Position numbers and translations under genes: made by a program
Notes under the pieces: generated by a model
The model's database searches: none
Seen by the model: only the letters and a program-made list of their open reading frames with translations
What the model was told of the DNA's origin: nothing
Shown here: positions 4,473 to 54,783 of the stretch, piece after piece
Position numbering within the stretch: position 1 is the first letter of the stretch
How the letters are laid out: each line of letters begins with the position of its first letter
IMG/VR virus record: IMGVR_UViG_3300012016_000001
Span: 1-64,000 of that record
DNA: 64,000 bases
Direction: 5' to 3' (one strand)
Source: a virus
Lineage: Duplodnaviria; Heunggongvirae; Uroviricota; Caudoviricetes

Positions 4473-4543
4473 TGGTCCTTAGTTTAGTGGTAAAACGATG
4501 GTCTCCAAAACCATTGTCATCTGTTCGATTCAGATAGGGCCTG
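4473..4543 (+). tRNA. tRNA-Trp(CCA)
   Basis: Anticodon arm ATGGT-CTCCAAA-ACCAT, T-arm ATCTG-TTCGATT-CAGAT. The acceptor has one mismatch in either register. Confidence 0.7.
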
Positions 4544-5116: not shown

Positions 5117-5205
5117 GCCCTCATCGTATATCGGTCAGTGCTGGAAACAGACGATTACCCCTGCCTTTTAAGCAGGTAAGCATGGTTCGACTCCATGTGG
5201 GGGCA
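5117..5205 (+). tRNA. tRNA-Lys(TTT) with about 17-nt expansion of the D-arm (89 nt)
   Basis: Acceptor GCCCTCA/TGGGGGC, anticodon arm CCTGC-CTTTTAA-GCAGG, T-arm CATGG-TTCGACT-CCATG. The D region is GTA-T-ATCG...CTG-GAAA-CAG...CGAT-TAC, an extended helix carrying a GAAA-capped hairpin. Confidence 0.6.
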
Positions 5206-5244
5206 CTATAAAAATCAAGACAATAAAAGTAGTTTTTAAGAAAT

Positions 5245-5376
5245 AAAGAAGTCTTACAGCAATAACAATTAATCTAAGTTTACCAAAAAGCGCTGAACTT
5301 GTAGTTCAATGGTAGAATACCTTTTTATTAAAAAGGAGATGACGGTTCGAATCCGTGTGGCAAAAAAGACTTCTTT
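5245..5376 (+). ncRNA. CAGCAA-box element, copy E4, enclosing a tRNA-like core without a conventional acceptor stem
   Basis: AAAGAAGTCTT (5245-5255) pairs with AAGACTTCTTT (5366-5376). CAGCAA at 5257-5262. Inside are a D-arm GTTC-AATGGTA-GAAT, the hairpin CCTTT-TTATTAA-AAAGG, and a T-arm ACGG-TTCGAAT-CCGT. Confidence 0.5.
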
Positions 5377-5979: not shown

Positions 5980-6043
5980 GGAGGGCATGCAGCAAAAAGT
6001 TTGTAAATAGCGTGTCTGTGTAACATACTTAACAGTGCCCTCC
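5980..6043 (+). ncRNA. CAGCAA-box long-range-helix element, copy E8
   Basis: GGAGGGCA (5980-5987) pairs with TGCCCTCC (6036-6043). CAGCAA at 5990-5995. Confidence 0.5.
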
Positions 6044-6081
6044 GTTTTTATGAAAATGTTTTAACTATTTAAATAGTAACT

Positions 6082-6876
6082 ATGCAAAAATTAAATGTTT
6101 TATTAGCTCTTAGAGAGAAGTTAGCTAATCGTTATGCCCAAATGAACGGTGACTATACTTCATTCTTTAAGAACAAGCAAGGAGCGTTTCAAGGTACGCT
6201 CAAGACACACTCTCCTTTAGATGGGTATGCAGTAGATTCTACTAAAGTAGCTAATGTGAGAGTTATTACCACAGTCAATGAAAAAATGGATTGGTGGTTG
6301 AAAGAAGCTCTAGACTATTTTAACACAGCTTTGGCTATTGAAGCATCTAATGGGCAAGGTGCTCCTACAGTTGAACTAGAATTCGATGGAAGAACTTACG
6401 GTCCTTTCCCAGCTACTGTGTTATTAAGGCTTCGTGGCATTATAGAGAACGATAAGTTCGCTACAATGCTTGGTAATATTCCTGTTAGAGAGGAGACCAA
6501 AGTTTGGTTGCCTATTGATCAGGATGAAGATTACAAGAGAAGAGGTAATATCTTCCAAACAGAAAGACAAGAAGGTGAGACTCGTACTACAGAAACACAT
6601 GATGAAATCTTGAAAGATCCTAACTTAGATCCAGCTCATCTTCCTTCTAATTACCGTGCTCAAGTAACTCAAGTTAAGAGAACAGTTAAGACTGGAGATT
6701 ATACTACTCAGTCATTTACTGGTGAATGGACACATCAGCAACGTGCTAATCTTTTAAAAAGAAGAAGTGCATTGCTCGATGCTATCAATGTTGCCTTACA
6801 AAAAGTCAATGACCGTGAGGCAATTGAGTGTAAAGTAGATGATCTATTCAGACATCTCATTTATGGACAAAATTAA
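6082..6876 (+). CDS. hypothetical protein embedded in the tRNA array
   Basis: 264-aa ORF with no recognised motif. Confidence 0.55.
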   Translation: MQKLNVLLALREKLANRYAQMNGDYTSFFKNKQGAFQGTLKTHSPLDGYAVDSTKVANVRVITTVNEKMDWWLKEALDYFNTALAIEASNGQGAPTVELEFDGRTYGPFPATVLLRLRGIIENDKFATMLGNIPVREETKVWLPIDQDEDYKRRGNIFQTERQEGETRTTETHDEILKDPNLDPAHLPSNYRAQVTQVKRTVKTGDYTTQSFTGEWTHQQRANLLKRRSALLDAINVALQKVNDREAIECKVDDLFRHLIYGQN

Positions 6877-7010
6877 ACTTTAAATATTGACCCTAGCTTT
6901 AGCTTCACACTTTAGCTTTACAGAATCCTAGATAGTAAGCATCAATGTTGTGGTCAAAAGCTTTAGCGAAGTTGATTACAGTGTATTACTTACCTTGACG
7001 ACTATTATCG

Positions 7011-7154
7011 CTCGGTAATCGCGGGTTCAAATCCCGTCCCGCCCTCAAACAGAGTTCTTCTGAACTCTGCCCTTTCATGTTACTTTAGTCATTGCTTGTG
7101 AAAGTAGTGACTATATGGGCGGGTCGTCTAGTGGTTAAGACTCCGGGTTTTTAA
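7011..7154 (+). tRNA. circularly permuted tRNA-Lys(UUU)-like gene: 3' half (7011-7045) lies upstream of the 5' half (7117-7154)
   Basis: The 3' half is CTCGG-TAATC-GCGGG-TTCAAAT-CCCGT-CCCGCCC-T. The 5' half is GGGCGGG-TC-GTCT-AGTGGTTA-AGAC-T-CCGGG-TTTTTAA. Acceptor and anticodon stems are complementary only between the two halves. Neither half has a partner in the normal gene order. Confidence 0.55.
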
Positions 7155-7228
7155 GCATCAGCATTATAGGGTAAAATGTAATACGCAAAAGTTCATGGAT
7201 TAGTAAGACGGATTTGTCGCTAATCCTA

Positions 7229-7301
7229 GGGAGAGTAGCTCAGTGGTTAAAGCAATAGTCGCTAAAACTATCGATCGAGGGTTCGAATCCCTCCTCTCCT
7301 G
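7229..7301 (+). tRNA. amber-suppressor tRNA, anticodon CTA (reads UAG), with G at position 33
   Basis: A 73-nt canonical cloverleaf: acceptor GGGAGAG/CTCTCCT, anticodon arm ATAGT-CGCTAAA-ACTAT, T-arm GAGGG-TTCGAAT-CCCTC. Confidence 0.75.
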
Positions 7302-7364
7302 CTTATGTTACCATATTATATTATTTTTTCGTTAGTATCTGTCTGTGAAGATCGATACTAAGTC

Positions 7365-7459
7365 AGCGGGTTATGCAAATGGTAAAGCAGTAGTTTATCT
7401 ATGTGAGTACGTATAGTTCTAGGCCAGTACTCTTGGGAGTTCGAGTCTCTCACCCGCTA
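7365..7459 (+). tRNA. 95-nt tRNA-like gene, anticodon undetermined
   Basis: Perfect acceptor AGCGGGT/ACCCGCT, D-arm TGC-AAATGGTAAA-GCA, T-arm GGGAG-TTCGAGT-CTCTC. The 44-nt central region has no canonical 5-7-5 anticodon arm. Its best helices are GAGTAC/GTACTC and CTATG-(8 nt)-TATAG. Confidence 0.4.
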
Positions 7460-7498
7460 CAAATTAATTTAAAACAAATTGGGTAAAAAATAACCTAT

Positions 7499-7646
7499 AA
7501 AGGAGACGAACAGCAATTTCAACGTTTTGCATTTTGGTTGCCGAAGTTAGGGTTCGAATCCCTAGTCCTCCCTAATGGGAGGATTAGTGTAACTGGTAAG
7601 TGTGAAGTTAAGCACACGATAGCACGCGTTTTTGTTGGTCTCCTTT
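7499..7646 (+). ncRNA. CAGCAA-box element, copy E9, enclosing tRNA-Ser-like pieces in permuted order
   Basis: AAAGGAGAC (7499-7507) pairs with GTCTCCTTT (7638-7646). CAGCAA at 7511-7516. Inside, the T-arm TAGGG-TTCGAAT-CCCTA and GTCCTCC are followed after 6 nt by GGAGGAT, the same acceptor as the tRNA-Ser at 7851. Confidence 0.45.
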
Positions 7647-7850
7647 TAAAATATTTTCCCTCTTAAAGGTTTTGCTAGGAATCTAGCTTATCAGGGTATG
7701 CTCTAAGCTCTTAGTTACGGTGCACACGTTCTGAGTTTGAGTAGTGTATTATAAGTTCACCCATAACTGCAGATAAAAGTGAATGAAATTTACACGTCCT
7801 TAGGATTACTAAGAGGGATAAGGGAGAGATTTATTAATCTCTCCCCGAAT

Positions 7851-7940
7851 GGAGGATTAAGCCTAATTGCTAAGGCAGCGGTCTTGAAAACCGCCAGTAG
7901 TCGGTAAAACGACGTGTGGGTTGGAGTCCCACATCCTCCT
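7851..7940 (+). tRNA. tRNA-Ser(TGA), long variable arm
   Basis: Acceptor GGAGGAT/ATCCTCC, anticodon arm GCGGT-CTTGAAA-ACCGC, long variable arm, T-arm GTGGG-TTGGAGT-CCCAC. Confidence 0.85.
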
Positions 7941-7942
7941 CT

Positions 7943-8233
7943 ATGAGTAAATGTAAGACAAGTAAATGTAATGCAGCATGTTGTTACAACATCTGCTTTA
8001 AAGAGAATGAGCTTGAACGATTTTCTGTACGTATTGTAAATCCTGTTATAGATACTATTCCACTTCCTTGGGGAACTATGGCTAAAACTAATGAGAATAT
8101 GGATTTAAATAAATGTCCATTTCTTAGAAAGGATTTAAAGTGCAATATATACGAAAATCGTCCAGAGGTGTGTAGGTTGATGGGAGTTATTCCTAAGATG
8201 CCATGTAAGTATTTAAAGGAGAGTAAACCTTGA
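7943..8233 (+). CDS. YkgJ-like CxxCxxCC zinc/iron-chelating domain protein
   Basis: Motifs KCNAACCY and CPFL..KCNIYENRPEVCR. ATG at 7943; the track ORF N-terminus (7916) overlaps the tRNA-Ser. Confidence 0.6.
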   Translation: MSKCKTSKCNAACCYNICFKENELERFSVRIVNPVIDTIPLPWGTMAKTNENMDLNKCPFLRKDLKCNIYENRPEVCRLMGVIPKMPCKYLKESKP

Positions 8234-8303
8234 GGGTGATAGGGGCTGTTTGCTAAACAGTACGCTCGCTTCGGCGGGTGCGGATCGAGACCGCTGCTCT
8301 CCT
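8218..8303 (+). tRNA. tRNA-Ser(GCT), long variable arm; overlaps the last 16 nt of the upstream CDS
   Basis: Acceptor GGAGAGT/GCTCTCC, anticodon arm GCTGT-TTGCTAA-ACAGT, variable arm containing CGC-TTCG-GCG, T-arm TGCGG-ATCGAGA-CCGCT (49-65 mismatch). Confidence 0.65.
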
Positions 8304-8328
8304 CGCTAACTTTTAACAATTAAAGTGT

Positions 8329-8445
8329 ATGGAAGATTTAAATTACAAGTATGAAAAACCTGATAAACCAATTCAGGTTAATGTTCCAAGTAAACCACGA
8401 TTTAAAGTCAACCAAGAAGGTGGCGACACGCGTTGGTATACATGA
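8329..8445 (+). CDS. possible 38-aa ORF (coding status doubtful)
   Basis: ATG directly after the repeated 15-mer AACAATTAAAGTGTA. The region downstream looks structured rather than coding. Confidence 0.2.
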   Translation: MEDLNYKYEKPDKPIQVNVPSKPRFKVNQEGGDTRWYT

Positions 8446-8669
8446 ACTCCGACCATCCACAATGTCGTAAACTTAGGTGGCGTAGGAAAAGAAACTACTT
8501 TCCTGTTAGGTACGAGAACCTAATTTAGCTTTGTCAGTTTCGCTGAGGAAGAAACGACTATGTGACCTAGTCAGAAAATTAGGCAGAACTGTGGACGCAC
8601 AGCGAATAGAAGGTGGGTAAGATTGCGACTTGAGAACTCTATATGTCTTATAAACCTGCCTTCTCTTTA

Positions 8670-8743
8670 GGGCCTCTAGCACAATAGGTTAGTGCAACAG
8701 ACTCATAATCTGTAGGTTCCGAGTTCAAGCCTCGGGGGGCCCA
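8670..8743 (+). tRNA. tRNA-Met(CAT), either elongator or tRNA-Ile2 type
   Basis: Acceptor GGGCCTC/GGGGCCC, D-stem GCAC/GTGC, anticodon arm ACAGA-CTCATAA-TCTGT, T-arm CCGAG-TTCAAGC-CTCGG. Confidence 0.85.
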
Positions 8744-8759
8744 CTAAACACCTTTAAAT

Positions 8760-9554
8760 ATGAAATTAATAAGTAAAGAACGGACTGGCGGAAATCCAGC
8801 TATTGAAATTGAAATGGACAAGGTGGATAACCTAAGAGTTTTAGATATTATCCATTCTTTGGTTGATGCTCAAGGTAGAATCTATCCAATACCATTCTCC
8901 TTTATAAAGAATGATAATGAGGATACCTTGAACGTGGTAATGCAAGTGTTAGGTTTGTATACCTTTCCAACTCTTGAACTAACTGAATGGTTAGAAGAAC
9001 AAATAGATGAATACACTGAAGGTTACGAGCCTGCTATAGAAATATGTGCAGGAAGTGGATGGATAGGTAGACAACTTCAAATACCTACTACTGATGCCAA
9101 AATCCAAGAAGATCCTAAAGTGCGGAATCTATATTTAATGAGTAGTCAAATTCCTATGATATATCAGGATGATGTTGAAAAGATAGAAGCTCTTGAGGCA
9201 GTTAAAAAGTATAATCCTGAATATGTAATAGGTAGCTACGTTACTTCTACTGAAAGAATTAAGAAAAATAATAAAAGAAAGACTATCTATTTAAATATAC
9301 CTTTACCAAGCGGAGGATTTATAAAACAAAATATGATGGAGCTTGCAGAAAAGGAGATTCCGTTTTTTGGAGTTAATGTTCAAGCTATAATAAGGAGAGT
9401 GCATAAGACTTTCTTAGTTATAAATGAAAGAACCCATTATAACGAATCTTACTTGAGTATGCCACATAAGTCATATAAGTTTCCTTGGCTTGTAACTAGA
9501 GGTGATATTAAAAAAGGTCGTGTTTTAATATATGAGAACAAAGGATGGACTTGA
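8760..9554 (+). CDS. hypothetical protein, possible SAM-dependent methyltransferase fold
   Basis: AIEICAGSGWIG resembles methyltransferase motif I (weak). Confidence 0.45.
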   Translation: MKLISKERTGGNPAIEIEMDKVDNLRVLDIIHSLVDAQGRIYPIPFSFIKNDNEDTLNVVMQVLGLYTFPTLELTEWLEEQIDEYTEGYEPAIEICAGSGWIGRQLQIPTTDAKIQEDPKVRNLYLMSSQIPMIYQDDVEKIEALEAVKKYNPEYVIGSYVTSTERIKKNNKRKTIYLNIPLPSGGFIKQNMMELAEKEIPFFGVNVQAIIRRVHKTFLVINERTHYNESYLSMPHKSYKFPWLVTRGDIKKGRVLIYENKGWT

Positions 9555-10704: not shown

Positions 10705-11063
10705 GGGCCTGACCGGATTTGACGGCTTCTGAAGGTAAATCACTCACTCATGACTGATGGAAAGACATCAAAAAAATTAAACGGAGAAAATAACACAACT
10801 CCCCGCGCTAAAGTTGTTAGCATCGTTTATAGAGCTGCAGCTTGATCGACGCCTGGTAAAAGGGTAACCAAGGAACATAATACCCTTAATTTCTTTATTT
10901 TTAGCCAATAATATTCTGCGCCTATCGGAGATATAACTAAATAGGCTGGTGGAAAGTCAGACAACAGTCTGCCCCAGAGAAGGAAACTCTTATAAAACCT
11001 ATGAGTGTAAGAATGTGATGAGAATAGGATTCGCGGACGAGGGTTCGACTCCCTCCAGGTCCA
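10705..11063 (+). ncRNA. ssrA: tmRNA (SsrA), one-piece
   Basis: The 5' end GGGCCTGACCGGATTTGACGG and the 3' end GGACGAGGGTTCGACTCCCTCCAGGTCCA closely resemble bacterial tmRNA termini. Acceptor GGGCCTG/CAGGTCC has a G3:U70 pair. Internal tag ORF at 10783-10845. Confidence 0.88.
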
Positions 11064-11317
11064 CTTGTTAAATAATGTTAAATTTATTGTGGATTTATAT
11101 TGTTATTTATATATTTAATCCTGTAAAAACGTTCATTATAGTAAAGATAAAATGTTCCAGCACTCACGGCTACAAACTGAGTGACTAGTGTTCAACAAGA
11201 GCGCAGTATTACTATCACAGCTGAACTATAGAGGCAGTGAAGACTTTATGGTCGAACTGAGGGCAGTTTAGTCTGGAACAATCTAAGCTGTTCTCTTTAC
11301 TTGTGAAATTCATAAAT

Positions 11318-11979: not shown

Positions 11980-12183
11980 ATGAAAGAAAGAATAAGAAAG
12001 ATTATTGAAAGAATTACTGAACGTAAAATTACAAATGATGATGAGCCTATAGAGATGGATAGTATAGACACTATGGAAGTTATAGTAAGTCTAGAGTATG
12101 AATATGACATCCATATAGATACTATTATAAAGGAGGATTTATCATTAAATGATTACGTTGAGTTAGTTAGGAGCATGGTGTAA
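11980..12183 (+). CDS. acyl carrier protein-like small protein
   Basis: 67 aa with EMDSIDTMEVIVSLEYEY, which matches the ACP DSLD phosphopantetheine-site helix. The track ORF N-terminus overlaps tRNA-His. Confidence 0.55.
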   Translation: MKERIRKIIERITERKITNDDEPIEMDSIDTMEVIVSLEYEYDIHIDTIIKEDLSLNDYVELVRSMV

Positions 12184-12252
12184 TGGTAGCACATCTGACT
12201 TTGACTCAGAAGGGAGCGTGAGCCACTGCAGGTTCGAGTCCTGCTGCTCCTA
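12169..12252 (+). tRNA. tRNA-Gln(TTG) with a 17-nt variable region; overlaps the last 15 nt of the ACP-like CDS
   Basis: Acceptor AGGAGCA/TGCTCCT, anticodon arm TCTGA-CTTTGAC-TCAGA, variable region AGGGAGCGTGAGCCACT (GC-GTGA-GC mini-hairpin), T-arm GCAGG-TTCGAGT-CCTGC. Confidence 0.7.
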
Positions 12253-12290
12253 CTTGTCTCCATTAAGGAGAATTTTAAAGGTGTTTGTTC

Positions 12291-12325: not shown

Positions 12326-12410
12326 GCTGCGTTCGACTAGTGGCTTAGGTCACAAGACTTTCAATCTTGTAGGATGAAAATCCTCAGGGGTTCGAATCCC
12401 CTACGCAGTA
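12326..12410 (+). tRNA. tRNA-Glu(TTC) with a 16-nt variable arm
   Basis: Acceptor GCTGCGT/ACGCAGT, anticodon arm CAAGA-CTTTCAA-TCTTG, variable arm T-AGGAT-GAAA-ATCCT-C, T-arm AGGGG-TTCGAAT-CCCCT. Confidence 0.75.
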
Positions 12411-12414
12411 CTAA

Positions 12415-12488
12415 GGGAGCTTAGTTCAGTGGTTTAGAACACTGCCCCTACAAGGCAGGAGTCGATAGTTCGAATCTATCAGTTCCCA
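12415..12488 (+). tRNA. tRNA-Val(TAC) with C at position 33
   Basis: Acceptor GGGAGCT/AGTTCCC, anticodon arm CTGCC-CCTACAA-GGCAG, T-arm GATAG-TTCGAAT-CTATC. Confidence 0.8.
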
Positions 12489-20423: not shown

Positions 20424-20909
20424 ATGATTAACAACTCGAATTCTCCTGCTCCTAAAGTAGTTCGGGCAGATGATGAAGATCGTTGGATTGATATCCACGA
20501 TCACGACCTGATGGTATCCCTAGGTATACAACAGCCTTTTTATGAAGGACGTGACCCTTCTGTATGGAGTAAGACTCCAGATGAAAAGGAAAAACTCAGA
20601 GTCTTAAAAGACCGTTGTACTACTATATTACCACGTCCTTGGCCCTATATAGAGCCAAGAGTACCCTTCTATGGTAAGCTTATTGTTCGTATTCGTCCTA
20701 GCAATAAGTTTAAATTCTTCGATAAGCACAAGAACGAACAGAAGAAGACCTACTTCTCTCATAAGCACGTGTGCATATCAGACATTCCTAACATACTGGC
20801 TCAATACTATGTATGGAAGGACAAAGCCCGTCAGACGTTGGTAATATCGTATACTTGGAATGGCAAAACCTACTCCTACAACGAGTTACCTAACTCCAGA
20901 TGGAAGTAG
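20424..20909 (+). CDS. hypothetical protein (TAG stop)
   Basis: 161-aa ORF. Confidence 0.5.
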   Translation: MINNSNSPAPKVVRADDEDRWIDIHDHDLMVSLGIQQPFYEGRDPSVWSKTPDEKEKLRVLKDRCTTILPRPWPYIEPRVPFYGKLIVRIRPSNKFKFFDKHKNEQKKTYFSHKHVCISDIPNILAQYYVWKDKARQTLVISYTWNGKTYSYNELPNSRWK

Positions 20910-22882: not shown

Positions 22883-23773
22883 ATGGGAATTTTAGGTGAC
22901 AAATTGACAGCAGCTAAGGAAGCAAAAAGTAATAACATCAATACTTTCGTTTGGAAAGGTCCTAAGAAAGAGGTTGATGGTAAAGTAGTACAGGAAGAGG
23001 TGATGTTGAAAGACGCCACCGAGGCACAACTGAGAGAGTTCTATGCCCACTGTATGTCAATGTTACATAGCCAAGACAAGGTTAATCCCGGAAGATATAC
23101 ACTTCTTGGTATTATTAAAGAACAAAGAGATTGTTGTAATGCTGAACTTTTCGTGAGATGGCTTGAGAACAAGTATAAGAAAGATAATCCTGTGCGTAAG
23201 GAGTATCATAGATATTTGTATCTTCAGGATTTGCGCACTATCCTTAATAACAATAGGGAACAGTTTGATCTTAGCCATCTAGACCAGTATGCTATTGAGA
23301 CAGTTACGCAGGGAGCTCCAATGGAGTTTCGTGATGTAACTATAGCTAAGGCACAAAGTGCTTGTCTGGACACTCTTGGAGAGTTTAATAAGAAGCATCT
23401 TTCTCTTAACTTTATTACCAAGTTAGGATTGTGGTTTACTCCCGCTGAAATCAAAGACCTTACGGAAAAAGATGAAAACGGAAAGACCAAGGATAGATTA
23501 GCAGTTATTCGTGAACGTCACGGGTTGAAGGCTAGTATTAAGCTTTATATCAATCCAAAGGGACTCAACTATACAGAACTTCGTGCTATGCTTAATTTAA
23601 AGAGCAAGAGTCGTAAGTATTCTGACCTCACTACAGACCAGCTTGTTACTTTACGTGACAAGGTGTTGTTCCGTTTTGAGGAAGAGGTTGATTTCCACAT
23701 CCAGCAATGGGAAGAGCGTATCGAACAGCTCAAGAAAGTTGCTGAAATGAAAGGAATAAATTTGGATGAATAG
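22883..23773 (+). CDS. hypothetical protein
   Basis: 296-aa ORF. Confidence 0.55.
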   Translation: MGILGDKLTAAKEAKSNNINTFVWKGPKKEVDGKVVQEEVMLKDATEAQLREFYAHCMSMLHSQDKVNPGRYTLLGIIKEQRDCCNAELFVRWLENKYKKDNPVRKEYHRYLYLQDLRTILNNNREQFDLSHLDQYAIETVTQGAPMEFRDVTIAKAQSACLDTLGEFNKKHLSLNFITKLGLWFTPAEIKDLTEKDENGKTKDRLAVIRERHGLKASIKLYINPKGLNYTELRAMLNLKSKSRKYSDLTTDQLVTLRDKVLFRFEEEVDFHIQQWEERIEQLKKVAEMKGINLDE

Positions 23774-26298: not shown

Positions 26299-27551
26299 AA
26301 ACGTTAAAATTTCTTAAGGACTGGTTTTGATGATTCATATTTTCTATATTAGTTATAATAAAATTATAACAATATGGAAATTAATGAAAAAATTGAAACT
26401 GGAGTCAAAATGTACCTGAATGGTGATGGCACATTAACACAATTACAGAGTATACTTGGAATTAGTAAAGATTTAATAGTAGCTAGATTAAAGGAATTAG
26501 GATATACAATTAAAAGAGGCTATAAACTATCTACAGTAATAGGGTTAAAGGCTGCTACTGAAGAATATTTAGCTAATTATAATAATAATCCTAGTTTGAC
26601 TCAAATAGCTGCTAAACATGGAATAAAAAGACAAACTCTTTCTTCACACGTTAAAGAATTAGGTTATGAAGTTATTAATCATCAAGATAGATTGAAATTT
26701 GATAACACTATATTTGATAGCATTGATACAGAAGAAAAGGCTTATTGGTTAGGATTTATATTTGCAGATGGATATGTAAGTGATAATAATGATTTTGAAG
26801 TATCTTTAAGTATTAAAGATTTTACTCACTTAAATTTATTGCATTTATTTATGAAGACTGAAAAGCCTGTCGGATTTAATGAGACTAGATGTAGACTATG
26901 TGTGAGAGATACTCACTTAGTAAATACTCTTAAGTCTTATGGTTGTATACCAAGAAAATCCTTAGTCTTAGAATTTCCAGAAGAAAAAATCTTTAAAGAT
27001 ATTAAACTTATAAGACATTTTATAAGAGGATTTGTTGATGGGGATGGATGCATTACTTACATCAATAAGGAACATACAAAGCCTCAACTCTCTATTTTAG
27101 GAACAGAGCAATTTCTAAATAAACTTCAGGAGTATTTACCTATTGATTTTATACATCAATTAGGATATAATAATAAATCTAAGAGTTTAGTAACTAGAGT
27201 TTTATCCTTTAATGGAAGTACTGCTTACAATGTTTGTAAGTTTCTATATCAAAATTCTAAAGTGTACCTAGATAGAAAATATGAGAAATTTTTAGAAATT
27301 TGCCGTTCAGAGGAGGAATCTTCTGAATTATTACTGGGCAAAAACGGTGAAGGCTGTGATGCTCCCGCCGTGGTAAATTCAGAAATTGCGAAAGGTTCTG
27401 AATCACCGTACAGCGTAGAGAGTGAATAAATATAATCTCTCCAAGAGTGCCTGGCACCCCAACTGAAATAAGTGGGTGAAAACGTACGCGGGACTTAAGC
27501 AAATAAGAAGCTTAAGAAACTAAGATAAAAAGCTTAGTGGTAACAAAATCG
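26299..27551 (+). mobile_element. group I intron carrying a LAGLIDADG homing endonuclease gene
   Basis: Splicing GGT|...tcG|AAG ACT ACC restores GGTGSGKTTF. The 5' exon ends in T and the intron ends in G. GC-rich paired segments occur near the ORF 3' end and downstream of it. Confidence 0.6.
26374..27429 (+). CDS. LAGLIDADG homing endonuclease (double motif) with N-terminal HTH-like repeats
   Basis: YWLGFIFADGYV and IRGFVDGDGCI motifs. Confidence 0.8.
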   Translation: MEINEKIETGVKMYLNGDGTLTQLQSILGISKDLIVARLKELGYTIKRGYKLSTVIGLKAATEEYLANYNNNPSLTQIAAKHGIKRQTLSSHVKELGYEVINHQDRLKFDNTIFDSIDTEEKAYWLGFIFADGYVSDNNDFEVSLSIKDFTHLNLLHLFMKTEKPVGFNETRCRLCVRDTHLVNTLKSYGCIPRKSLVLEFPEEKIFKDIKLIRHFIRGFVDGDGCITYINKEHTKPQLSILGTEQFLNKLQEYLPIDFIHQLGYNNKSKSLVTRVLSFNGSTAYNVCKFLYQNSKVYLDRKYEKFLEICRSEEESSELLLGKNGEGCDAPAVVNSEIAKGSESPYSVESE

Positions 27552-30605: not shown

Positions 30606-31631
30606 ATGAGTATGGATTTTAGTTTTTATCTTGAACCTAAAATTACTAAAGACTTTCTTCTTTCTTATAATAAAGAAGAAGTTTACATGTCCTTCTACTT
30701 AGGTATTCCTATTAAAAAGGGATTATTTTGTTCTCCGTTAAGAAAGGATAATACTCCAACTTGTTCTTTCTATAGGAATAAACAAGGTGATTTAATCTTT
30801 AAGGATTTTAATGGTTCTTTTTATGGTAACTTTATTTCAGTAGTAATGTACAAGTACAGCATTGGTTATAATGAGGCTTTAAGAACTATAGCCAATGATT
30901 TTAGCCTTATACATACTCCTGGATATGTAAAGCATAAGGGAATTGTTCGTGATAATATTCCGACTTTTGAAACTCCAGAAACTGCACTCATTCAAGTAGA
31001 AATACAAGAATTTCTTGATTCTGAACTTGAGTGGTGGGCAAGTTATGGAATTACTTCTAAGTTGTTGAAGAAGTATCATGTATACTCTTGTAAGAATATC
31101 TTTTTAAATGGGAATTACTTTATGGCCTCAACCAAATCATGTCCTGCGTATGGTTATTATGGAGGCAAAGAAGACAATGTAGAACTTTGGAGAATATACT
31201 TTCCAAAGAAAAAACAGTATAGATTCCTCACTAATTGGAAAGCTAAACAAGTACAAGGTTATCAGCAATTACCTAAAGAAGGAAAGTTATTAGTAATTAC
31301 AAAATCAATGAAAGATGTAATGTGTCTTGCAGGACTAGGCATTAAAGCTATTGCCCCAAATAGTGAAAATTTATTTATACCAGATAAAATGTTAGAAGAA
31401 TTAAAACAGCGTTTTTCATATATAGCCGTACTATATGATAACGATCTTCCAGGCATTAGTAATATGAATAAGATTAAAAAACAACACCCTGAACTTAAAT
31501 ATCTATGGATTCCTCGTAAGTATGGGGCTAAAGATATTTCTGATTTTAGAAAGAAGTACGGTGAGAAAGTTACTAAACAATTTATTAAAGAAACTATTAT
31601 TAAGGTATGGAAGAGCTCTTTGAAACTGTAG
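30606..31631 (+). CDS. DNA primase (zinc finger plus Toprim)
   Basis: CSPLRKDNTPTCSF zinc-finger-like segment and Toprim LYDNDLPG. Confidence 0.65.
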   Translation: MSMDFSFYLEPKITKDFLLSYNKEEVYMSFYLGIPIKKGLFCSPLRKDNTPTCSFYRNKQGDLIFKDFNGSFYGNFISVVMYKYSIGYNEALRTIANDFSLIHTPGYVKHKGIVRDNIPTFETPETALIQVEIQEFLDSELEWWASYGITSKLLKKYHVYSCKNIFLNGNYFMASTKSCPAYGYYGGKEDNVELWRIYFPKKKQYRFLTNWKAKQVQGYQQLPKEGKLLVITKSMKDVMCLAGLGIKAIAPNSENLFIPDKMLEELKQRFSYIAVLYDNDLPGISNMNKIKKQHPELKYLWIPRKYGAKDISDFRKKYGEKVTKQFIKETIIKVWKSSLKL

Positions 31632-37782: not shown

Positions 37783-39474
37783 ATGGAAATAATGAAAGTA
37801 ATTAAACGTGATGGAAAATTGGAGGAATTTGATGCCTCTAAAATAAAGGCAGCTATTAGGGCTGCCTTTAAAAGTGCAGATGAAGAATTTGACGAAGAAT
37901 TAATAGATGATATATTCAATGATCTTCCTTTATGGGATGAAATGACTATTGATTCTATAGAAGATCAAATAATTGAAGTTCTGAATGACTTTAACTATGA
38001 AAATGTAGCTAGAGAGTATCTATTCTATAAATGGGAACACCAGAAAGCTCGTAATTTAGCAGAGAGCAAGAGGTCCTTTATAGAAAGATATAAAGAAGCT
38101 ACTAATACTGCAAATGCTACTATAGATGACAATAGTAATGTCGGGAATAAGAATATAGGTATACTTAATGCAGAAGGCCACAAGACTGAGAATATTTTAG
38201 TTAGTAGGGCAATGATAAAGAGTAAACTTAAAAGCTTGTTTCTTGACTTTGATGCTAAACAGTATGTAAGAGACTTGAAAAGTCATATAATTTATAAGCA
38301 TGACGAGTCTAGTTTTATGGGTGCTATTGCTCCTTACTGCTGTTCTATATCTATGTATCCTTTCCTCATAGGAGGAATAAAGGGTATAGGTGGTCTTTCT
38401 GCAGCTCCTAAGAATCTTGATAGTTATTGTGGAATGTATGTTAATCTTATATTTGCAATAGCTGGGCAGTTTGCTGGAGCAGTTGCTACTCCTGAATTTT
38501 TATTGTATTTTGACTATTTTGCACGTAAACAATGGGGAGATTTATATTATCAAAAACCTAATGTTCAGACTACCAGTGATTATGTACTACGTAAAATGAC
38601 AATACAAAAGGAAATACATCAATATTTTCAACAAGTTATTTATAGTATTAATCAACCAGCAGCTGCAAGAGGTATGCAATCTGCATTTGTGAACTTTGCA
38701 TATTTTGATAAACCATTTTTTGAAGCAATGTTTGGAAATTTTGTATTTCCAGATATGTCTACTCCTAAGTGGGAATCTCTAAATTGGTTACAAAAAGAGT
38801 TTATGCGATGGTTTAATTCAGAAAGATGTAAATGTATTCTAACTTTCCCTGTAGAATCTTTTGCTCTTATTTATAAAGATGGTAAGTTCTTAGATGAGGA
38901 AAATGCAAAGTTTGTTGCAGAAGAATACTCTAATGGTCATAGCTTTTTTACATATATTTCTGATACTGCTGATAGTTTGTCTTCTTGTTGCCGCCTCAAA
39001 AACAAAGTGGATACAAAAGAATTTAACTTTACCAATGGAAACATGGGTGTGGAGACGGGCTCAAAGAGTGTTATAACTCTTAATTTAAATAGGATTATAC
39101 AAGATTGGTGTAAGTTTATAGGAGGAGTTCCGAAAGTGGGAAATCAATATGACAGTTTACGTCTTTATTTAAGAAATATTCTTCAAAGAGTATATAAATA
39201 TCATATAGCATATAATGAATGCTTATGGGATATGTATGATGCTGGATTACTTCCAGTTTATTCCAATGGATTTATATCTCTTAACAAGCAATATCTAACT
39301 ATCGGACTTAATGGACTTAACCAGGCAGCAGAATTCTTAGGCATTGAGTGTAATGTAAATCAAGAATATCAAGACTTCTGCCAAGCTGTATTCTCTATCA
39401 TAAAGGAAGCTAATTCTGAAGCTAATGGAAAATACTTTGGACACAAAGTTACATTTAATACTGAATGTGTCCCT
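37783..39474 (+). CDS. nrdD: anaerobic ribonucleoside-triphosphate reductase NrdD, exon 1
   Basis: N-terminal ATP-cone (VIKRDGKLEEFDASKI) and class III RNR core ending FNTECVP at the predicted 5' splice site. Confidence 0.8.
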
Positions 39475-40504
39475 AGACTCAGTGGGGACGTTAAACCTCT
39501 ATTGATTGACTTGGAAGCCCCTAGAGGGCAACAGGGCGCAAGCAGAAGCGTTTGTAAGTTTCGTGCAGCGTGAACGACTAAGTATAGAGGCTCCTTAAGT
39601 TACTGCAGTGATGCAGTTCTTTTGGGAGATGCGATAGTCTGAACTCTATGGTAACATAGAGAGGAAATTTGAAGAAATTTCCCATCCAAACTTGTTTTCT
39701 CATAAAACACTTATTAAGTTTGTTCTATGTAATAAATGAAAATGTTATTTAAAATTTTTATGAAAATGGAACAAGAAGTACGTAAGTGTTGTATTTGTGG
39801 AGCGTCAGTAGGAAATGGAACTGACAAAGTTTACAAATTTTCAGATGGAAATATGTATTGCAAGAAGCACTATCTTCAGATGTATAGACATGGACATATA
39901 ATAGAAAGAACTATATATGATCCAAATGAATATATAGAATATGAAGATTATGCAGAATGTATATGTTATGATAAATCTGGAAATGAGAAAGGAAGAGTAA
40001 AAATAGATCTAGATAAAGTTTCTTTAATAAAAAAGCATAAAGTGTACATAAGAAAACAAAATGACAAAATTTATGCAGCGATTTCCATTGATAATAAAAA
40101 GGTAATGCTCCATAGATATTTAATGGAAATAATTAATGAAGAATATTCTATTAATAAAGTTGTTGATCATATAAATGGAGATTCTTTAGATAATAGGATT
40201 TCTAATTTAAGAATTTGTACACATAAACAAAATATGCAAAATATAAGAAAGAAAAATAAAATAGTAGGAGTATCTAAAAGTCCTAATAAAAATAATAGAT
40301 GGATTGCAAGAATAATGCATAATTATAAAACTATTAATTTAGGATATTTTGATACTTATGCAGAGGCCACTTTAGCTCGTATACAAAAAGAAAAGGAAAT
40401 CTGTGGAGAGTATGGGCCTAACAAGGATTTATTTTACGTTTTGGATCTCCCTTCTCCATTGGAAGAATTACAAAAATTTGTTCCAGAAGGGGTGTAACAG
40501 AATG
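39475..40504 (+). mobile_element. group I intron carrying an HNH-AP2 homing endonuclease gene
   Basis: Splicing CCT|...aatG|GCT GAA restores the conserved VPAE. The 5' exon ends in T and the intron ends in G. A GC-rich structured 260 nt, including GATAGTCTGAAC (group I core-like), precedes the ORF. Confidence 0.65.
39736..40497 (+). CDS. HNH homing endonuclease with an AP2-like DNA-binding domain
   Basis: VDHINGDSLDNRISNLRICTHKQN (HNH) and NRWIARIMHNYKTINLGYFDTYAEA (AP2-like). Confidence 0.75.
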   Translation: MKMLFKIFMKMEQEVRKCCICGASVGNGTDKVYKFSDGNMYCKKHYLQMYRHGHIIERTIYDPNEYIEYEDYAECICYDKSGNEKGRVKIDLDKVSLIKKHKVYIRKQNDKIYAAISIDNKKVMLHRYLMEIINEEYSINKVVDHINGDSLDNRISNLRICTHKQNMQNIRKKNKIVGVSKSPNKNNRWIARIMHNYKTINLGYFDTYAEATLARIQKEKEICGEYGPNKDLFYVLDLPSPLEELQKFVPEGV

Positions 40505-40978
40505 GCTGAAAGTTTAGCTGCTAAGAATTATAATTGGGATAAAGAAGATGGATATTGGGTACCTGAAGATACTAATCTATACGCATCTTATATATTTAAG
40601 CCTAATGATAAGTCTGTAAGTATTCTAGATAAAATTACATTACATGGTTCTAATTATATAGGAGATTATTTAGACGGAGGAAGTGCTGCACATATTAATC
40701 TAGCAGACCATCCTTCTTTCTTCCAAGCCTGGAAAATTCTAAATTTTGCAGCAGAACAAGGATGTCAGTATTTTACTTTTAATGTTCCTAATTCTGAGTG
40801 TCAAGATTGTGGATGGATAGGTAAAAAACCAGTAAAAGTATGTCCTAGATGTGGTTCTACGCATATAGATTACTATGATAGAATTATTGGTTATTTAACT
40901 AAAATACGTAATTGGGCAGATTGCCGTAAAATTGAACAAAAAACTAGAGTTTATGAAAAATTCGAAGATAGAGCCTGA
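40505..40978 (+). CDS. nrdD: NrdD, exon 2 (zinc ribbon and glycyl-radical motif)
   Basis: CQDCG...CPRCG zinc ribbon and DRIIGYL glycyl-radical-type C-terminus. Confidence 0.8.
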   Translation, partial: AESLAAKNYNWDKEDGYWVPEDTNLYASYIFKPNDKSVSILDKITLHGSNYIGDYLDGGSAAHINLADHPSFFQAWKILNFAAEQGCQYFTFNVPNSECQDCGWIGKKPVKVCPRCGSTHIDYYDRIIGYLTKIRNWADCRKIEQKTRVYEKFEDRA

Positions 40979-42375: not shown

Positions 42376-42743
42376 TTACTGGTATTGAAAATCTTCCACG
42401 TACAAAACAGAAGGCTGTTTTAGAATTTATTTCTTCAGAATTTGATCTTGATGAGGCTATAAAAATAGATGAAGAAGATGATGATATTATCTTAATTAAT
42501 GATAACAGATATTTTGTTATTCATCCTTATGAAGAAAATGAGTTAATAGATGATGTTAACGATAATAGATTTGAAGCTGCTTTTGAAAATCTATCTGAAG
42601 AACAAAGAAGTTATGTAGACAAAGATAAATGGATAGAGGACAAAGGTTTACAAGATTTTATAGACTACCTTAAATATGAACTAGATGAAATGCCATCTAA
42701 AGATTACTTAGTATTTGGTGGTTATCATTTCTATGAACTTTAA
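42372..42743 (+). CDS. hypothetical acidic protein
   Basis: 123-aa ORF. Confidence 0.5.
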   Translation: MITGIENLPRTKQKAVLEFISSEFDLDEAIKIDEEDDDIILINDNRYFVIHPYEENELIDDVNDNRFEAAFENLSEEQRSYVDKDKWIEDKGLQDFIDYLKYELDEMPSKDYLVFGGYHFYEL

Positions 42744-43204
42744 TGAAGTTTACTGAATATGAAGTCGTTTTAAGGGAAATTCCTGACGAAATAACTTTAG
42801 CTATTAACATAAGTAATTGTCCTTTCCATTGTGAGGGTTGTCATAGCCCTCACTTATGGGAGGATGTAGGAATGAAACTAACTGCCCCTCTTTTATATCA
42901 AATGATTAAGAGGAATAATGGTATTACTTGTGTATCATTTATGGGAGGCCCATTTAAAGAAGTTAGTGTATGGTCGGACTGGATTCACAAAGTGTTTCCT
43001 GATTTAAAAACTGCATGGTATACTGGAGATTCTACTCTTCCCATATTTGAAAATTCATTAGATTATATAAAAGTAGGAAAATATATAAAAGACTTAGGTC
43101 CACTTAATAGTCCTACTACTAATCAAAGACTATATAAGATAGTTAAACTAGAAAGTGGATTTAAAGGAGTTATGAATATTACTCCACGTTTATGGAAAAA
43201 TTAG
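42743..43204 (+). CDS. nrdG: anaerobic RNR activating protein NrdG (radical SAM)
   Basis: CPFHCEGC (CxxxCxxC) motif. Located near nrdD. Confidence 0.75.
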   Translation: MKFTEYEVVLREIPDEITLAINISNCPFHCEGCHSPHLWEDVGMKLTAPLLYQMIKRNNGITCVSFMGGPFKEVSVWSDWIHKVFPDLKTAWYTGDSTLPIFENSLDYIKVGKYIKDLGPLNSPTTNQRLYKIVKLESGFKGVMNITPRLWKN

Positions 43205-43524: not shown

Positions 43525-43673
43525 TTGACTATACATTAGGATGTATAGATATATATACTATTCCAAGGGAAGAAGATCCTCAAGAATGGTTAGACAAGAA
43601 TAATAAATGGAATCCTAGTAGTTGTGAATGGATAGGACACGATGGTATTTTACCTATTACTATTCATGCTTGA
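43506..43673 (+). CDS. small hypothetical protein (55 aa)
   Basis: Fills the gap between track ORFs. Its stop overlaps the helicase start. Confidence 0.3.
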   Translation: MQQIAVIDYTLGCIDIYTIPREEDPQEWLDKNNKWNPSSCEWIGHDGILPITIHA

Positions 43674-45072
43674 TTTTACTAAATTAACTGAAGAACTTAA
43701 GAAACCTAAAAGAGAATTTGAGCTTGGAGAAGAACAACTCCAGGCTCTTTCCCTTATTAAGGACTTTATAAAGAATAGTAAAGATATTGCTTTTTCCTTA
43801 TGTGGTTCTGCAGGAACTGGAAAAACAACGTTGGAAAAAGAAATAATAGATTTTCTAAATGATGAATGGATTGATTATTCATTATGCGCTCCAACACATA
43901 AAGCTGCATTAGTTATGCGTCAAACTACAAAAGAAGATGCTATTACTTTGCATAAGTTATTAGCATTATCTCCTAATGTTGAAATACTTGATTTAGACTT
44001 TAGAGAGTTACAATTTAAAACTTCTAGAGTAGTTAATGCTATAATTCCAAAAAGTGTAGTTATATGTGATGAAGCTTCAATGATTAATGATGATTTATTC
44101 GATCTTCTTATTCAAAAATGTTCAGATAAGAAAGCTAAGATTATATTTTTAAGTGATAGTAAGCAACTTAACCCTGTTAAAAGTAGAAAGTGTTCAAAAG
44201 TATATGATTTACCTAACCAGTTTGAGTTGACTCATATATATAGGCAAGCCCAGGAAAGTGCCCTTACACCGCTTCTAGCAAGGCTCAGAGAGCATAAACT
44301 AGGTCACCTGGACAGTAAGCAAGGTGAGGCAGGAAACCTCATTGTAACCTCTAATATGAAGGAATTTTTAGAGGCAGCTAAAGTGCAATTTTTGGAAGCA
44401 ATTGATACACGAAATATATTGCAAACTAAAATTGCTGCCTATACTAATACGAGAGTATCTCTCTTTAATCAAGCTATTCGTAACTTTTTATGGAATGATG
44501 AAGAGCCCTATCATAAGGGTGAATTTTTAACTTCTTACGAAAATGCTGATTTTGAAGGTACAATGTTCTATAACTCAATGGATTACGTAGTTGCAAATGA
44601 ACCTGAAGAAGTTACTACTGAACTTCCTCACTTCTATGCAAAGGTAAAAGGTTATCTTTTAGATTTATGGGATGCCTATGATAAATACACAAAAGAGTGT
44701 TTTATTCTATCTAAAGATAATCCAGAAATTGTTTTTGAACAATTAGCATCTATCCTTGAAGCGATAAGATTCAAAGCAATTGAATCCAAACAAACTAGTT
44801 CCTTTAAAGCCTCTTTATATTGGAAACAATATTATGAATTACTTCATAGTTTTGTGACTCCTATACCATTGGTTTATGAAGGGAGAGTTGTTAGAAAGAA
44901 GTCTTTTGATTACGGTTATGCTTCTACTTCACATAAGTTACAAGGTTCCACTTATAATACGATATTCGTAGATTTAAGGAATATTAATACTTGTACTGAT
45001 GAAGCTGTTAAAAAACAATTACAATATGTAGCTTTATCTAGGACTAGAACTGATGCTTATGTATTACAATGA
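43666..45072 (+). CDS. Dda/RecD-like superfamily 1 DNA helicase
   Basis: GSAGTGKTT, CAPTHKAA, VICDEASMI, SHKLQGSTY, YVALSRTR motifs. Confidence 0.8.
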   Translation: MLDFTKLTEELKKPKREFELGEEQLQALSLIKDFIKNSKDIAFSLCGSAGTGKTTLEKEIIDFLNDEWIDYSLCAPTHKAALVMRQTTKEDAITLHKLLALSPNVEILDLDFRELQFKTSRVVNAIIPKSVVICDEASMINDDLFDLLIQKCSDKKAKIIFLSDSKQLNPVKSRKCSKVYDLPNQFELTHIYRQAQESALTPLLARLREHKLGHLDSKQGEAGNLIVTSNMKEFLEAAKVQFLEAIDTRNILQTKIAAYTNTRVSLFNQAIRNFLWNDEEPYHKGEFLTSYENADFEGTMFYNSMDYVVANEPEEVTTELPHFYAKVKGYLLDLWDAYDKYTKECFILSKDNPEIVFEQLASILEAIRFKAIESKQTSSFKASLYWKQYYELLHSFVTPIPLVYEGRVVRKKSFDYGYASTSHKLQGSTYNTIFVDLRNINTCTDEAVKKQLQYVALSRTRTDAYVLQ

Positions 45073-45921: not shown

Positions 45922-46278
45922 ATGAAAAAGTTTCAAGAATTAATTTCGGATAATACAAGTGCCTCACTAAAGCGTCGTGCTGCTCAAATTTCAACAAGTG
46001 CTGAAATTGCACAACAAAACTTAGTCAATGCTTTAAAGCAAGAAAAAACTAATGTAGAATTAAAGATTGCTAGTCTTACTGATTTAGCTCCAGATTCAAC
46101 TGAGTCATTACGTCCAGGTTCAAAGGACTGGGATGCAGTAACTTGGGTAAAGAATCTACAAAATGCCAAACAAGAACTTTATCAAATTGAGATTCAACTT
46201 AAGCTTGCCCAAGAAACATTTGACGAATATTTTACTGATAAAGAATGGATGGTATATCTTGTCAAGAAGAACTCATAA
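45922..46278 (+). CDS. hypothetical protein
   Basis: 118-aa ORF. Confidence 0.5.
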   Translation: MKKFQELISDNTSASLKRRAAQISTSAEIAQQNLVNALKQEKTNVELKIASLTDLAPDSTESLRPGSKDWDAVTWVKNLQNAKQELYQIEIQLKLAQETFDEYFTDKEWMVYLVKKNS

Positions 46279-51598: not shown

Positions 51599-51914
51599 AA
51601 TTTATTGTCCTTACGGAGAGGAAGTTTTTGTTGCTTATGCAGAAGAAAACCCAATAGATAATGAATTAATTTCTTGGGATGAACTGAGGGAGATATATCA
51701 AGAATTATGGGATAGTTATGGATATATAGTAACAGACCATACTGATGCAGATCCAGATGAAGAAGCTTATGAAGAAGAGTGTGAACAACTGTATGAAGAC
51801 TTTATGTGTGATACAGGAGCATCTGCAGAAGAAATGCCTATAGAGAAGATTAAATTATATACATCTAATGGTTCTGACCCAGAAATAATTTACGACGAAC
51901 GAAATGAAAAGTAA
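51576..51914 (+). CDS. hypothetical acidic protein
   Basis: 112-aa ORF. Confidence 0.45.
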   Translation: MIKTWKVKIYCPYGEEVFVAYAEENPIDNELISWDELREIYQELWDSYGYIVTDHTDADPDEEAYEEECEQLYEDFMCDTGASAEEMPIEKIKLYTSNGSDPEIIYDERNEK

Positions 51915-53649: not shown

Positions 53650-53660
53650 ACCAATCTATC

Positions 53661-54764: not shown

Positions 54765-54783
54765 AGGAAACTTATTGAAGAAG

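Follow-up and report, generated by a model that had tools for sequence, protein, structure and literature searches.

A candidate amber suppressor tRNA with G33 and an apparent Trp-like ancestry in a gut phage with TAG-recoded late genes

The stretch of DNA analysed here, called the window, comprises positions 1 to 64,000 of the IMG/VR virus record IMGVR_UViG_3300012016_000001 (64,000 nucleotides, nt), from a tailed phage (Caudoviricetes). At 7229-7301 it encodes a transfer RNA (tRNA) with the anticodon CUA and an unusual guanosine at position 33. We consider it likely, from the sequences of this tRNA(CUA) and its relatives, that it is a functional phage-encoded amber suppressor that originated from a Trp-like paralogue, is charged by glutaminyl-tRNA synthetase (GlnRS) and reads UAG as glutamine. 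The element is defined by the following features:

7229-7301, plus strand: tRNA(CUA), amber suppressor candidate, 73 nt (ARAGORN and Rfam RF00005).
7261, plus strand: G33 instead of the near-universal U33 (direct sequence reading).
7262-7264, plus strand: anticodon CTA, decoding UAG; of the eight orthologues in the alignment, six have CCA at this place and one has UGA.

ARAGORN called a tRNA with anticodon cta at 7229-7302, and Rfam model RF00005 covered 7229-7301 end to end (60.2 bits, E = 1.5e-10 for the whole window). The acceptor stem consists of seven base pairs (bp; GGGAGAG/CUCUCCU), with a G1.U72 wobble as pair 1-72, and is followed by the discriminator base G73. The D stem contains three Watson-Crick pairs and a C13.A22 mismatch, the anticodon stem has 5 bp (AUAGU/ACUAU), the variable loop has 5 nt, and the T arm (GAGGG-UUCGAAU-CCCUC) is canonical. 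The 7-nt anticodon loop reads C32 G33 C34 U35 A36 A37 A38, and the body also carries G2-C71, G3-C70 and G10. Both programs and the drawn structure thus agree with the original prediction of a CUA tRNA with the loop CGCTAAA and G33. The same prediction described all four arms as canonical, which is slightly overstated in view of the mismatch in the D stem and the wobble at pair 1-72. The sequence of the tRNA was identical in the window and in a contig stored separately in ENA.

By default, ARAGORN gives tRNAs with a CUA anticodon the name tRNA-Pyl. We rejected this reading as a naming convention only. As criteria for tRNA-Pyl we used a 6-bp anticodon stem, a 3-nt variable loop, a reduced D loop, a non-canonical T loop and the presence of pylS/pylBCD. 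In contrast, the anticodon stem of the tRNA(CUA) is 5 bp long and its variable loop 5 nt, the D loop contains GG, the T loop reads TTCGAAT, and no pyl genes were found among the Pfam matches of the region examined. Hence, the CUA anticodon is the sole feature that it has in common with tRNA-Pyl.

The window is part of a gut-metagenome contig of ~194 kilobases (kb), represented by two assemblies of 193,962 and 194,556 bp, and our sequence coverage amounted to ~84 kb of this genome. The full contig is deposited in ENA as ERZ28656410 scaffold_8 or ERZ964482 k127_265521. On the same contig, the direction of the genes flips ~2.3 kb past base 64000, where two giant late open reading frames (ORFs) of 1,535 and at least 710 amino acids (aa) lie on the minus strand. 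Both are open only if TAG is translated. They contain 30 and 10 in-frame TAGs, respectively, with zero TGA or TAA codons, and the standard code (code 11) splits them into pieces of at most 245 aa, of which all but the last stop at TAG. Nearly all of 80 related IMG/VR loci of the larger late ORF had 11-55 in-frame TAGs, and none of them needs TGA. Recoding of TGA or TAA was rejected, because TGA read-through left the late ORFs unlengthened, no TGA or TAA occurred in frame, and TGA is a frequent stop of early genes. The giant late ORF matched no PHROGs family. A tRNA scan of 82 loci around this gene detected none, so that suppressor and recoding were not paired contig by contig.

Inside the window the situation was different. 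The check suggested in the original prediction, in which genes are translated through TAG, identified late genes past the window end that reach full length only with TAG read, whereas the 64-kb window itself showed no recoding. Every long ORF in the window is on the plus strand, where coding is dense, and is intact under code 11, and TAG read-through lengthens the ORFs no more than TGA read-through does. Among ORFs of at least 60 aa, the stop codon was TGA in 51, TAA in 43 and TAG in 8 cases, three of which are nested or spurious. Each of the five real TAG-ended early ORFs has a back-up TAA or TGA 0-12 codons downstream:

20424-20909, 22883-23773, 30606-31631, 42743-43204 and 46245-46709, plus strand: TAG-ended early ORFs with a back-up stop downstream.

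The suppressor at 7229-7301 is thus located in an early block that is readable with code 11, and suppressor tRNAs of recoded phages have been located in standard-code early modules (bioRxiv 10.1101/2021.08.26.457843).

The amino acid inserted at TAG was deduced at the codon level. We set aside the residues given in database proteins, because these are proteins of recoded relatives in which TAG is already written as Q. In the closest homologue of the late ORF (81% aa identity), 10 TAGs were common to both sequences, 14 of the 20 others faced CAA or CAG, and in the reverse direction 6 of 8 faced Gln codons. Across 556 homologue pairs of 75-99.5% identity, which are phylogenetically non-independent, the partners of TAG were CAA (40%), CAG (29%), Lys (13%), Glu (5%), Trp (0.2%) and Tyr (0.1%). 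TAG thus faced a Gln codon in 69% of the TAG-to-sense substitutions. Since CAA is two mutations away from TAG, this pattern points to equivalence at the protein level rather than to mutational proximity. Furthermore, the late ORFs use CAA 47 times, CAG twice and TAG 40 times, such that TAG nearly displaces CAG. Together, these codon comparisons indicate that TAG is glutamine in the late genes. TAG-to-Gln recoding with suppressor tRNAs has been described in Zeta, Beta and Delta crAss-like phages (PMC7886860), and proteomic validation is reported for two crAss-like phages (PMC9523058). The expectation that the tRNA(CUA) would accompany a reassignment of TAG was therefore borne out by recoded late genes on the same contig, by TAG facing Gln codons and by a crAss-like DNA polymerase.

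The origin of the tRNA(CUA) was traced through its position. It begins 350 nt downstream of a conserved ORF, behind which the phages carry a tRNA slot with a variable anticodon. Three features of the window are relevant here:

6082-6876, plus strand: DUF7873 ORF, 264 aa, conserved anchor upstream of the variable-anticodon slot (PF25283, E = 1.7e-32; 107 homologues).
4473-4543 or 4544, plus strand: canonical tRNA-Trp(CCA), loop CUCCAAA, U33 (ARAGORN, Rfam).
12169-12252, plus strand: phage tRNA-Gln(UUG) with an inserted variable arm and A73 (Rfam; called by ARAGORN as 85 nt, 12169-12253).

Syntenic loci were fetched via the DUF7873 homologues from IMG/VR, ENA and Logan assemblies, and the slot survey comprised window positions 6082-7301 and loci L003-L005, L262-L270 and L275-L354, with the slot lying ~350-450 nt downstream of the DUF7873 ORF. 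In nearer relatives (72-90% ORF identity), the slot contained a tRNA with the same scaffold and G33, but with the anticodon CCA. Its loop is CGCCAAA in L003, L258, L264, L265/266/267 and L269, and UGCCAAA in L268. These CCA orthologues were found in at least seven other contigs, and all of them have G73 and U72. L264 and L265 hold both a tRNA-Trp with U33 (loop CUCCAAA) and the CGCCAAA tRNA(CCA). Because the window, L264 and L265 have an ordinary tRNA-Trp as well, the G33 gene is a second, Trp-like paralogue. The phage tRNA-Gln(UUG) showed little similarity to the suppressor in an alignment, which indicates that the suppressor does not derive from it. The best look-alikes among annotated GenBank phages were the tRNA-Trp of the Cellulophaga phages phi17:2 and phi4:1 (75% identity over 95% of the length), which have U33.

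We aligned eight orthologues from distinct phage contigs and different samples. G33 was invariant in all eight, 98.2% of the alignment cells in helices were paired, and 12 of the 21 pairs, distributed over all four helices, had changed on both sides. None of 500 shuffles reached the values of the alignment, and slid controls had ~50% of cells paired. The compensatory changes together with the invariant G33 imply that this lineage has been selected as a tRNA, and that G33 reflects neither an error nor decay. By parsimony, the CUA anticodon of the window would have arisen from CCA by a single C35-to-U change.

Searches for further copies yielded little. A megablast of window positions 6000-9000 against GenBank phages gave zero matches, as did a search for the exact 73-nt tRNA(CUA) in IMG/VR and a blastn search of the tRNA(CUA) against E. 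coli genomes. The 17-mer of the anticodon arm had six matches in IMG/VR, all by chance and without a tRNA at the site. The pattern CAATAGTCGNNNAAACT had at least 119 matches, with tRNAs only on contigs that were already known, and a stricter pattern had one chance match among JGI metagenome contigs. A stem-loop pattern had three chance matches, none in a tRNA, in 185,579 species genomes; hence, the G33 lineage appears to be restricted to phages.

Since G33 predates the CUA anticodon, it is not an adaptation to the reading of UAG as such. Rather, the orthologues indicate that G33 is an inherited, selectively kept trait of the CCA-anticodon paralogue lineage, and not special to the suppressor. 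G33 most likely alters how proteins that grip the anticodon loop, such as host nucleases and synthetases, see the tRNA, or it damps decoding. Its role may thus lie in escape from loop enzymes, in discrimination between synthetases or in damping the strength of the suppressor, and these three roles do not exclude each other. In the E. coli GlnRS complex, position 33 of the tRNA pairs with A37. If this pairing is correct, GlnRS might accept, or even prefer, a G33.A37 pair. With regard to loop enzymes, the wider slot often combines G33 or A33 with the anticodons of Lys(UUU) and Asn(GUU), the classical targets of PrrC and colicin E5 (PMC10264068). Synthetase discrimination is the role shown for G33 in tRNA-Ser(CAG) of Candida, which is the only well-known G33 tRNA (PMC4695839, PMC8645108).

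The following mechanism would be consistent with these data. The suppressor is presumably transcribed early, together with ~22 other tRNAs and a transfer-messenger RNA (tmRNA). The change of C35 to U would remove the main determinant of tryptophanyl-tRNA synthetase (TrpRS) and create the main determinant of GlnRS, U35. [quoted passage not shown] The body of the tRNA(CUA) carries determinants of the bacterial Trp and Gln type: G73, a weak first pair, G2-C71, G3-C70 and G10. Because U35 was gained on such a body, the host GlnRS is the likely charging enzyme, by analogy with the glutamine charging of su+7. The charged tRNA would then read UAG as glutamine and open the late genes on the minus strand. 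A model with an early-made suppressor has been proposed for recoded phages (bioRxiv 10.1101/2021.08.26.457843).

A second element with the same anticodon, overlooked in the first reading of the sequence, begins 64 nt downstream of the tRNA(CUA):

7365-7459, plus strand: second, non-canonical CUA tRNA-like gene, 95 nt (Rfam tRNA, 33.0 bits, E = 5e-5 in a local search).

The acceptor stem of this gene is perfect over its 7 bp, and the D arm is followed by an insertion of ~20 nt. The anticodon arm is extended and irregular, and its loop is UUCUAGG, which contains CUA, U33 and G37. Its homologues are 76-93 nt long, and the loop motif is invariant in their alignment. ARAGORN mislabels many of the copies, for instance as Ser(aga) or 'Stop|Leu'. 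The window phage may therefore carry two suppressors.

Several observations weigh against our interpretation of the tRNA(CUA). The CUA state of the slot occurred in one phage lineage only, in near-identical assemblies, and the closest relatives are equally TAG-recoded yet have CCA in the G33 gene; these relatives must thus decode TAG by another tRNA. The UUCUAGG motif, followed by a T arm, was present in 50 of the 88 syntenic loci and in all sub-groups, which suggests that the UUCUAGG gene may be the main, conserved and hard-to-detect amber suppressor of this clade. In other systems, such as Candida tRNA-Ser(CAG), a purine in this position is known to deform the U-turn and to make decoding less efficient (PMC4695839). 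Moreover, A36 and A38 depart from tRNA-Gln, and the identity rules applied here are those of the E. coli GlnRS, from which the rules of the host may differ. Finally, the ~110 kb of the genome outside the ~84 kb examined may hold further suppressors, release factor 2 or a synthetase. The Pfam matches of the ~84 kb included neither a release factor nor an aminoacyl-tRNA synthetase.

These points lead to the alternative that the G33 tRNA(CUA) is a minor, redundant or recent by-product of a switching slot, and that the true decoder is the UUCUAGG gene or another suppressor elsewhere in the genome. The stems that flank the UUCUAGG loop differ in sequence between loci but still pair, and the window copy, with its perfect acceptor stem, scores above the Rfam tRNA threshold. 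In addition, L264 holds another CUA tRNA, which is Gln-like, has the loop CUCUAAA with U33, and is located at 8960-9028 with a poorly paired acceptor stem. The literature, too, anticipates non-canonical suppressors that are invisible to standard tools (PMC7886860; bioRxiv 10.1101/2021.08.26.457843). However, in the window copy only three of the first ten loop-flanking positions pair in register, and its 20-nt insertion and irregular anticodon arm leave more doubt about its function than there is for the clean cloverleaf at 7229-7301. Degenerative changes are absent from the G33 tRNA, and the two genes may act jointly. We therefore regard it as unlikely that the tRNA(CUA) plays such a subordinate part.

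According to a further explanation, the slot tRNAs would be nuclease-resistant spares or decoys, in which a purine at position 33 blocks cleavage and the anticodon tracks the tRNA that is attacked in the host. The variability of the slot would fit this idea. Across the relatives, it carried the anticodons CCA, CUA, UGA, CUU, UUU, GUU, UUC, AUU and a UCA-like one, often with G33 or A33. Among the nearer relatives, the other loops were CGUGAAA (L005), UUCUUAA (L270, L276), UUAUUAA (L262) and the 6-nt GUCAAA (L263). In a distant group (~48% ORF identity), a nearly invariant scaffold was combined with CGUUUAA, CGGUUAA, UGUUUAA, CUUUCAU, CUUUUAU, CUCUUAA and other loops, such that the variation was concentrated in the loop. 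Near-identical scaffolds thus differ in their loops, many of which have a purine at position 33 (CGUUUAA, CGGUUAA, CAGUUAA, CGCCAAA, CGUGAAA), and the Lys(UUU) and Asn(GUU) anticodons in the slot correspond to the nuclease targets mentioned above. The phage also encodes an enzyme of the end-healing type:

52753-53649, plus strand: Pnkp-like polynucleotide kinase/phosphatase (Pfam HAD_PNKP, E = 6e-25; AAA_33, E = 2e-17).

Furthermore, 15 of 107 seven-base loops called by ARAGORN in the arrays of this clade (~14%) were non-U33, compared with 11 of 198 (~5.5%) in unrelated viral contigs, a background set that is biased by the search patterns used. Non-U33 loops in phage tRNAs are therefore unusual but not unheard of. 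On the other hand, U33 versions of the same slot scaffold also occur, and the host has no CUA tRNA to replace, so that the variant in the window makes sense mainly as a decoder. As an explanation of the tRNA(CUA), spares or decoys thus seem quite improbable to us.

Two side observations concern the slot itself. The slot tRNA of L263 (11123-11197) has UCA within its 6-nt loop GUCAAA, and is a possible opal suppressor. The slot scaffold of the distant group carries G3.U70, the alanine identity pair.

It is very improbable that the tRNA(CUA) inserts a residue other than glutamine, either tryptophan via residual activity of TrpRS or lysine. Its body is Trp-like (G73, U72, G2-C71, G3-C70), a plant tRNA-Trp(CUA) is mischarged by lysyl-tRNA synthetase (PMC9976931), and Lys is the second commonest partner of TAG. 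Yet the Gln codons that face TAG are mostly CAA, in spite of the two mutations required, Trp is hardly ever its partner, and the major TrpRS determinant C35 is gone. That the gene is a pseudogene or an artefact of assembly or sequencing, as the great rarity of G33 in cellular tRNAs and the single lineage with CUA might suggest, is effectively refuted by the orthologue alignment and the shuffles, and is also at odds with the high Rfam score and the identical copy on the separately stored contig.

The array contains further tRNAs that deviate from the canonical pattern:

12415-12488 or 12489, plus strand: tRNA-Val(UAC), loop CCUACAA, C33 (Rfam, 65.4 bits; ARAGORN).
5117-5206, plus strand: doubtful 90-nt 'Val(gac)' with A33 (ARAGORN only; not among the Rfam matches of the window at the gathering threshold).

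The C33 of tRNA-Val(TAC) and its loop CCTACAA, which had been noted from the sequence before, were confirmed from the ARAGORN structure. The Val(UAC) of the relatives L265 and L310 also has C33, whereas that of L264 has U33. The accompanying statement that all other tRNAs have U33 applies to every confidently called tRNA; it does not extend to the ARAGORN-only call at 5117-5206. Several tRNAs that are normally short contain hairpin insertions of 10-15 nt in the variable region, which give them class II-like lengths of 82-91 nt. In the window these are Gln(UUG) at 12169-12253 and Glu(UUC) at 12326-12411 (plus strand), and in the relatives they include Trp, Thr, Lys and Glu tRNAs (e.g., L264 7104-7188, 7703-7787 and 8266-8351). 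The phage-encoded tmRNA is located at 10705-11066 on the plus strand (Rfam, 68.4 bits), with the predicted tag GENNTTPRAKVVSIVYRAAA. Bacteroidota tmRNA tags begin with GENNYALAA; the tag in the window starts alike, but is longer and ends in RAAA. TRNA-like debris was seen at 5302-5357 on the plus strand (a partial Rfam tRNA match of 35.8 bits, model positions 8-63) and at 7540-7600 on the plus strand, where a T-arm-like element is followed by an element resembling a 5' half.

The genes in the window are involved in replication and in nucleotide and NAD metabolism. They include a family-A DNA polymerase, helicases, a ligase, a sigma-70-like factor and NAPRTase:

43642-45072: helicase.

The DNA polymerase is closest to those of crAss-like phages, with 55% identity to Kolpuevirus 'frurule' and 34-37% to many others. 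From this similarity and the general features of the genome, the phage is probably crAss-like and of the Zeta type; its size, tRNA load, intron-like insertions and coding behaviour match the published group (PMC7886860). Apart from window bases 1-19, the stored contig matches the window identically, and its locus L001 is the same in sequence as window positions 51912-64000. When the window ends were mapped onto scaffold_8 of ENA ERZ28656410, they implied a circle of ~194.6 kb, ~676 bp above the record of 193,962 bp and near the 194,556 bp of the second assembly. The window thus probably starts where a circular or terminally redundant genome was joined during assembly.

The gene for the anaerobic ribonucleotide reductase (NrdD) is split (37783-40978, plus strand). 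Its profile is matched over positions 7-414 by 37783-39573 and over positions 415-560 by 40412-40978. Between the two parts lies an ORF for an HNH endonuclease (39736-40497), and an intron that carries a homing endonuclease probably causes the interruption. Another ORF, at 26374-27429, is of the LAGLIDADG type. Two genes on the plus strand have domain matches that start ahead of their first ATG. In ORFs counted from stop to stop, the match to the 3'-5' exonuclease domain in the DNA polymerase (55106-55441) starts at residue 30, and that to the sigma-70 regions (50541-50948) at residue 19. Hence, public calls from the first ATG are probably too short, which suggests non-ATG starts.

Two other genes touch on tRNA biology. 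An ATP-dependent ligase at 47500-48708 also has a weaker match to RNA ligases. Together with the Pnkp-like enzyme, it may form a pair for tRNA repair, in which case the phage would seem to be under pressure from anticodon nucleases. In phage T4, Pnkp-type enzymes act in the repair of nuclease-cut tRNA (PMC10264068). Approximately 1.3 kb past the window end, a free-standing YqeY-like protein of 143 aa is encoded (L001 13381-13812, plus strand; PF09424, E = 8e-15). Only one further gene of the standard-code block follows before the TAG-recoded block begins, and the YqeY-like gene has been conserved in the relative L211. The YqeY domain raises the tRNA-Gln affinity of Deinococcus GlnRS, in cis only (PMC1865053). 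By analogy, the phage protein could be an accessory for the glutamine charging of the suppressor.

How each lineage acquired its suppressor, and which host enzyme charges it, are poorly understood aspects of recoding in gut phages. Our results suggest a one-mutation route from a spare Trp-type tRNA to a Gln-inserting amber suppressor, and this route predicts charging by the host GlnRS. They also point to a second natural code-changing tRNA with G33, after that of Candida. The variable-anticodon slot and the non-canonical CUA gene, mislabelled by standard tRNA finders, may partly account for the suppressors that are 'missing' from ~60% of recoded phage genomes. A more far-reaching idea, which we hold as tentative and doubtful, is that Zeta-type crAss-like phages keep a dedicated, evolvable slot, with a scaffold that usually has G73 and often a purine at position 33, and with an anticodon that is repeatedly rewritten. 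The tRNA in the window would then have been caught in the middle of gaining a code change, and its G33 would be functionally required, convergent with Candida. The copy with G33 might also serve to evade a host defence aimed at the phage's own conserved UUCUAGG suppressor. Recognition by the synthetases for Trp, Gln, Asn, Lys and Glu depends mainly on the anticodon, so that a single scaffold could switch identity with its anticodon. From such a slot, the phage could readily draw spare tRNAs that are proof against nucleases, as well as new stop-codon suppressors, and interest in the system would rise considerably if the slot generally served to renew tRNA specificities and changes of the code. 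In the literature on recoded phages and on position 33, we did not find a Trp-paralogue origin, an invariant G33 lineage, the DUF7873 slot or a tandem CUA gene.

Other tRNAs with unusual anticodon loops resemble the tRNA(CUA) in part. The phage tRNAs discussed by van den Berg et al. (2023) as escaping nucleases come from tRNA-rich phages as well, with deviations in the anticodon loop and a Pnkp-type enzyme. In contrast to our case, that study deals with differences between phage and host tRNAs at sites where cleavage is known, with no mention of position 33, and the CUA tRNA of the window is without a host counterpart. The tRNA-Ser(CAG) of Candida (CTG clade) is likewise a codon-reassigning tRNA with a conserved G33, where other tRNAs conserve a pyrimidine (PMC4695839, PMC8645108). 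It differs in being eukaryotic, in reassigning one sense codon to another, and in that its G33 lowers leucylation and decoding efficiency. Furthermore, G33 predates the reassigning anticodon in the window lineage, unlike in Candida.

A close parallel to the proposed change of identity is su+7 (supU) of E. coli, a tRNA-Trp(CUA) that is charged with glutamine after the same single change from CCA to CUA (PMC9976931). In both, whose bodies have G73, G2-C71, G3-C70 and a first pair that is weak, the change would be expected to abolish Trp identity and to confer Gln identity. The tRNA of the window is natural, phage-borne and fixed in a recoded genome, unlike su+7, and it has G33 and G1.U72 where su+7 has U33 and A1-U72. 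The loop of su+7, CUCUAAA, is the same as that of the window tRNA except at position 33.

Among recoded phages, the window phage resembles the crAss-like (Zeta, Beta, Delta) and Lak phages, which also have a CUA tRNA in an early region with the standard code, TAG confined to the late genes, and TAG read as glutamine. These phages share with it a large genome of low GC content, many tRNAs and intron-split genes (PMC7886860; bioRxiv 10.1101/2021.08.26.457843; PMC9523058). A suppressor tRNA combined with TAG-to-Gln recoding of late genes is thus already known from large crAss-like phages, of which the window represents a new member. The origins published for their suppressors are a point mutation of tRNA-Gln from UUG to UUA and capture from bacteria (PMC7886860), whereas the suppressor in the window points to a Trp-like paralogue.

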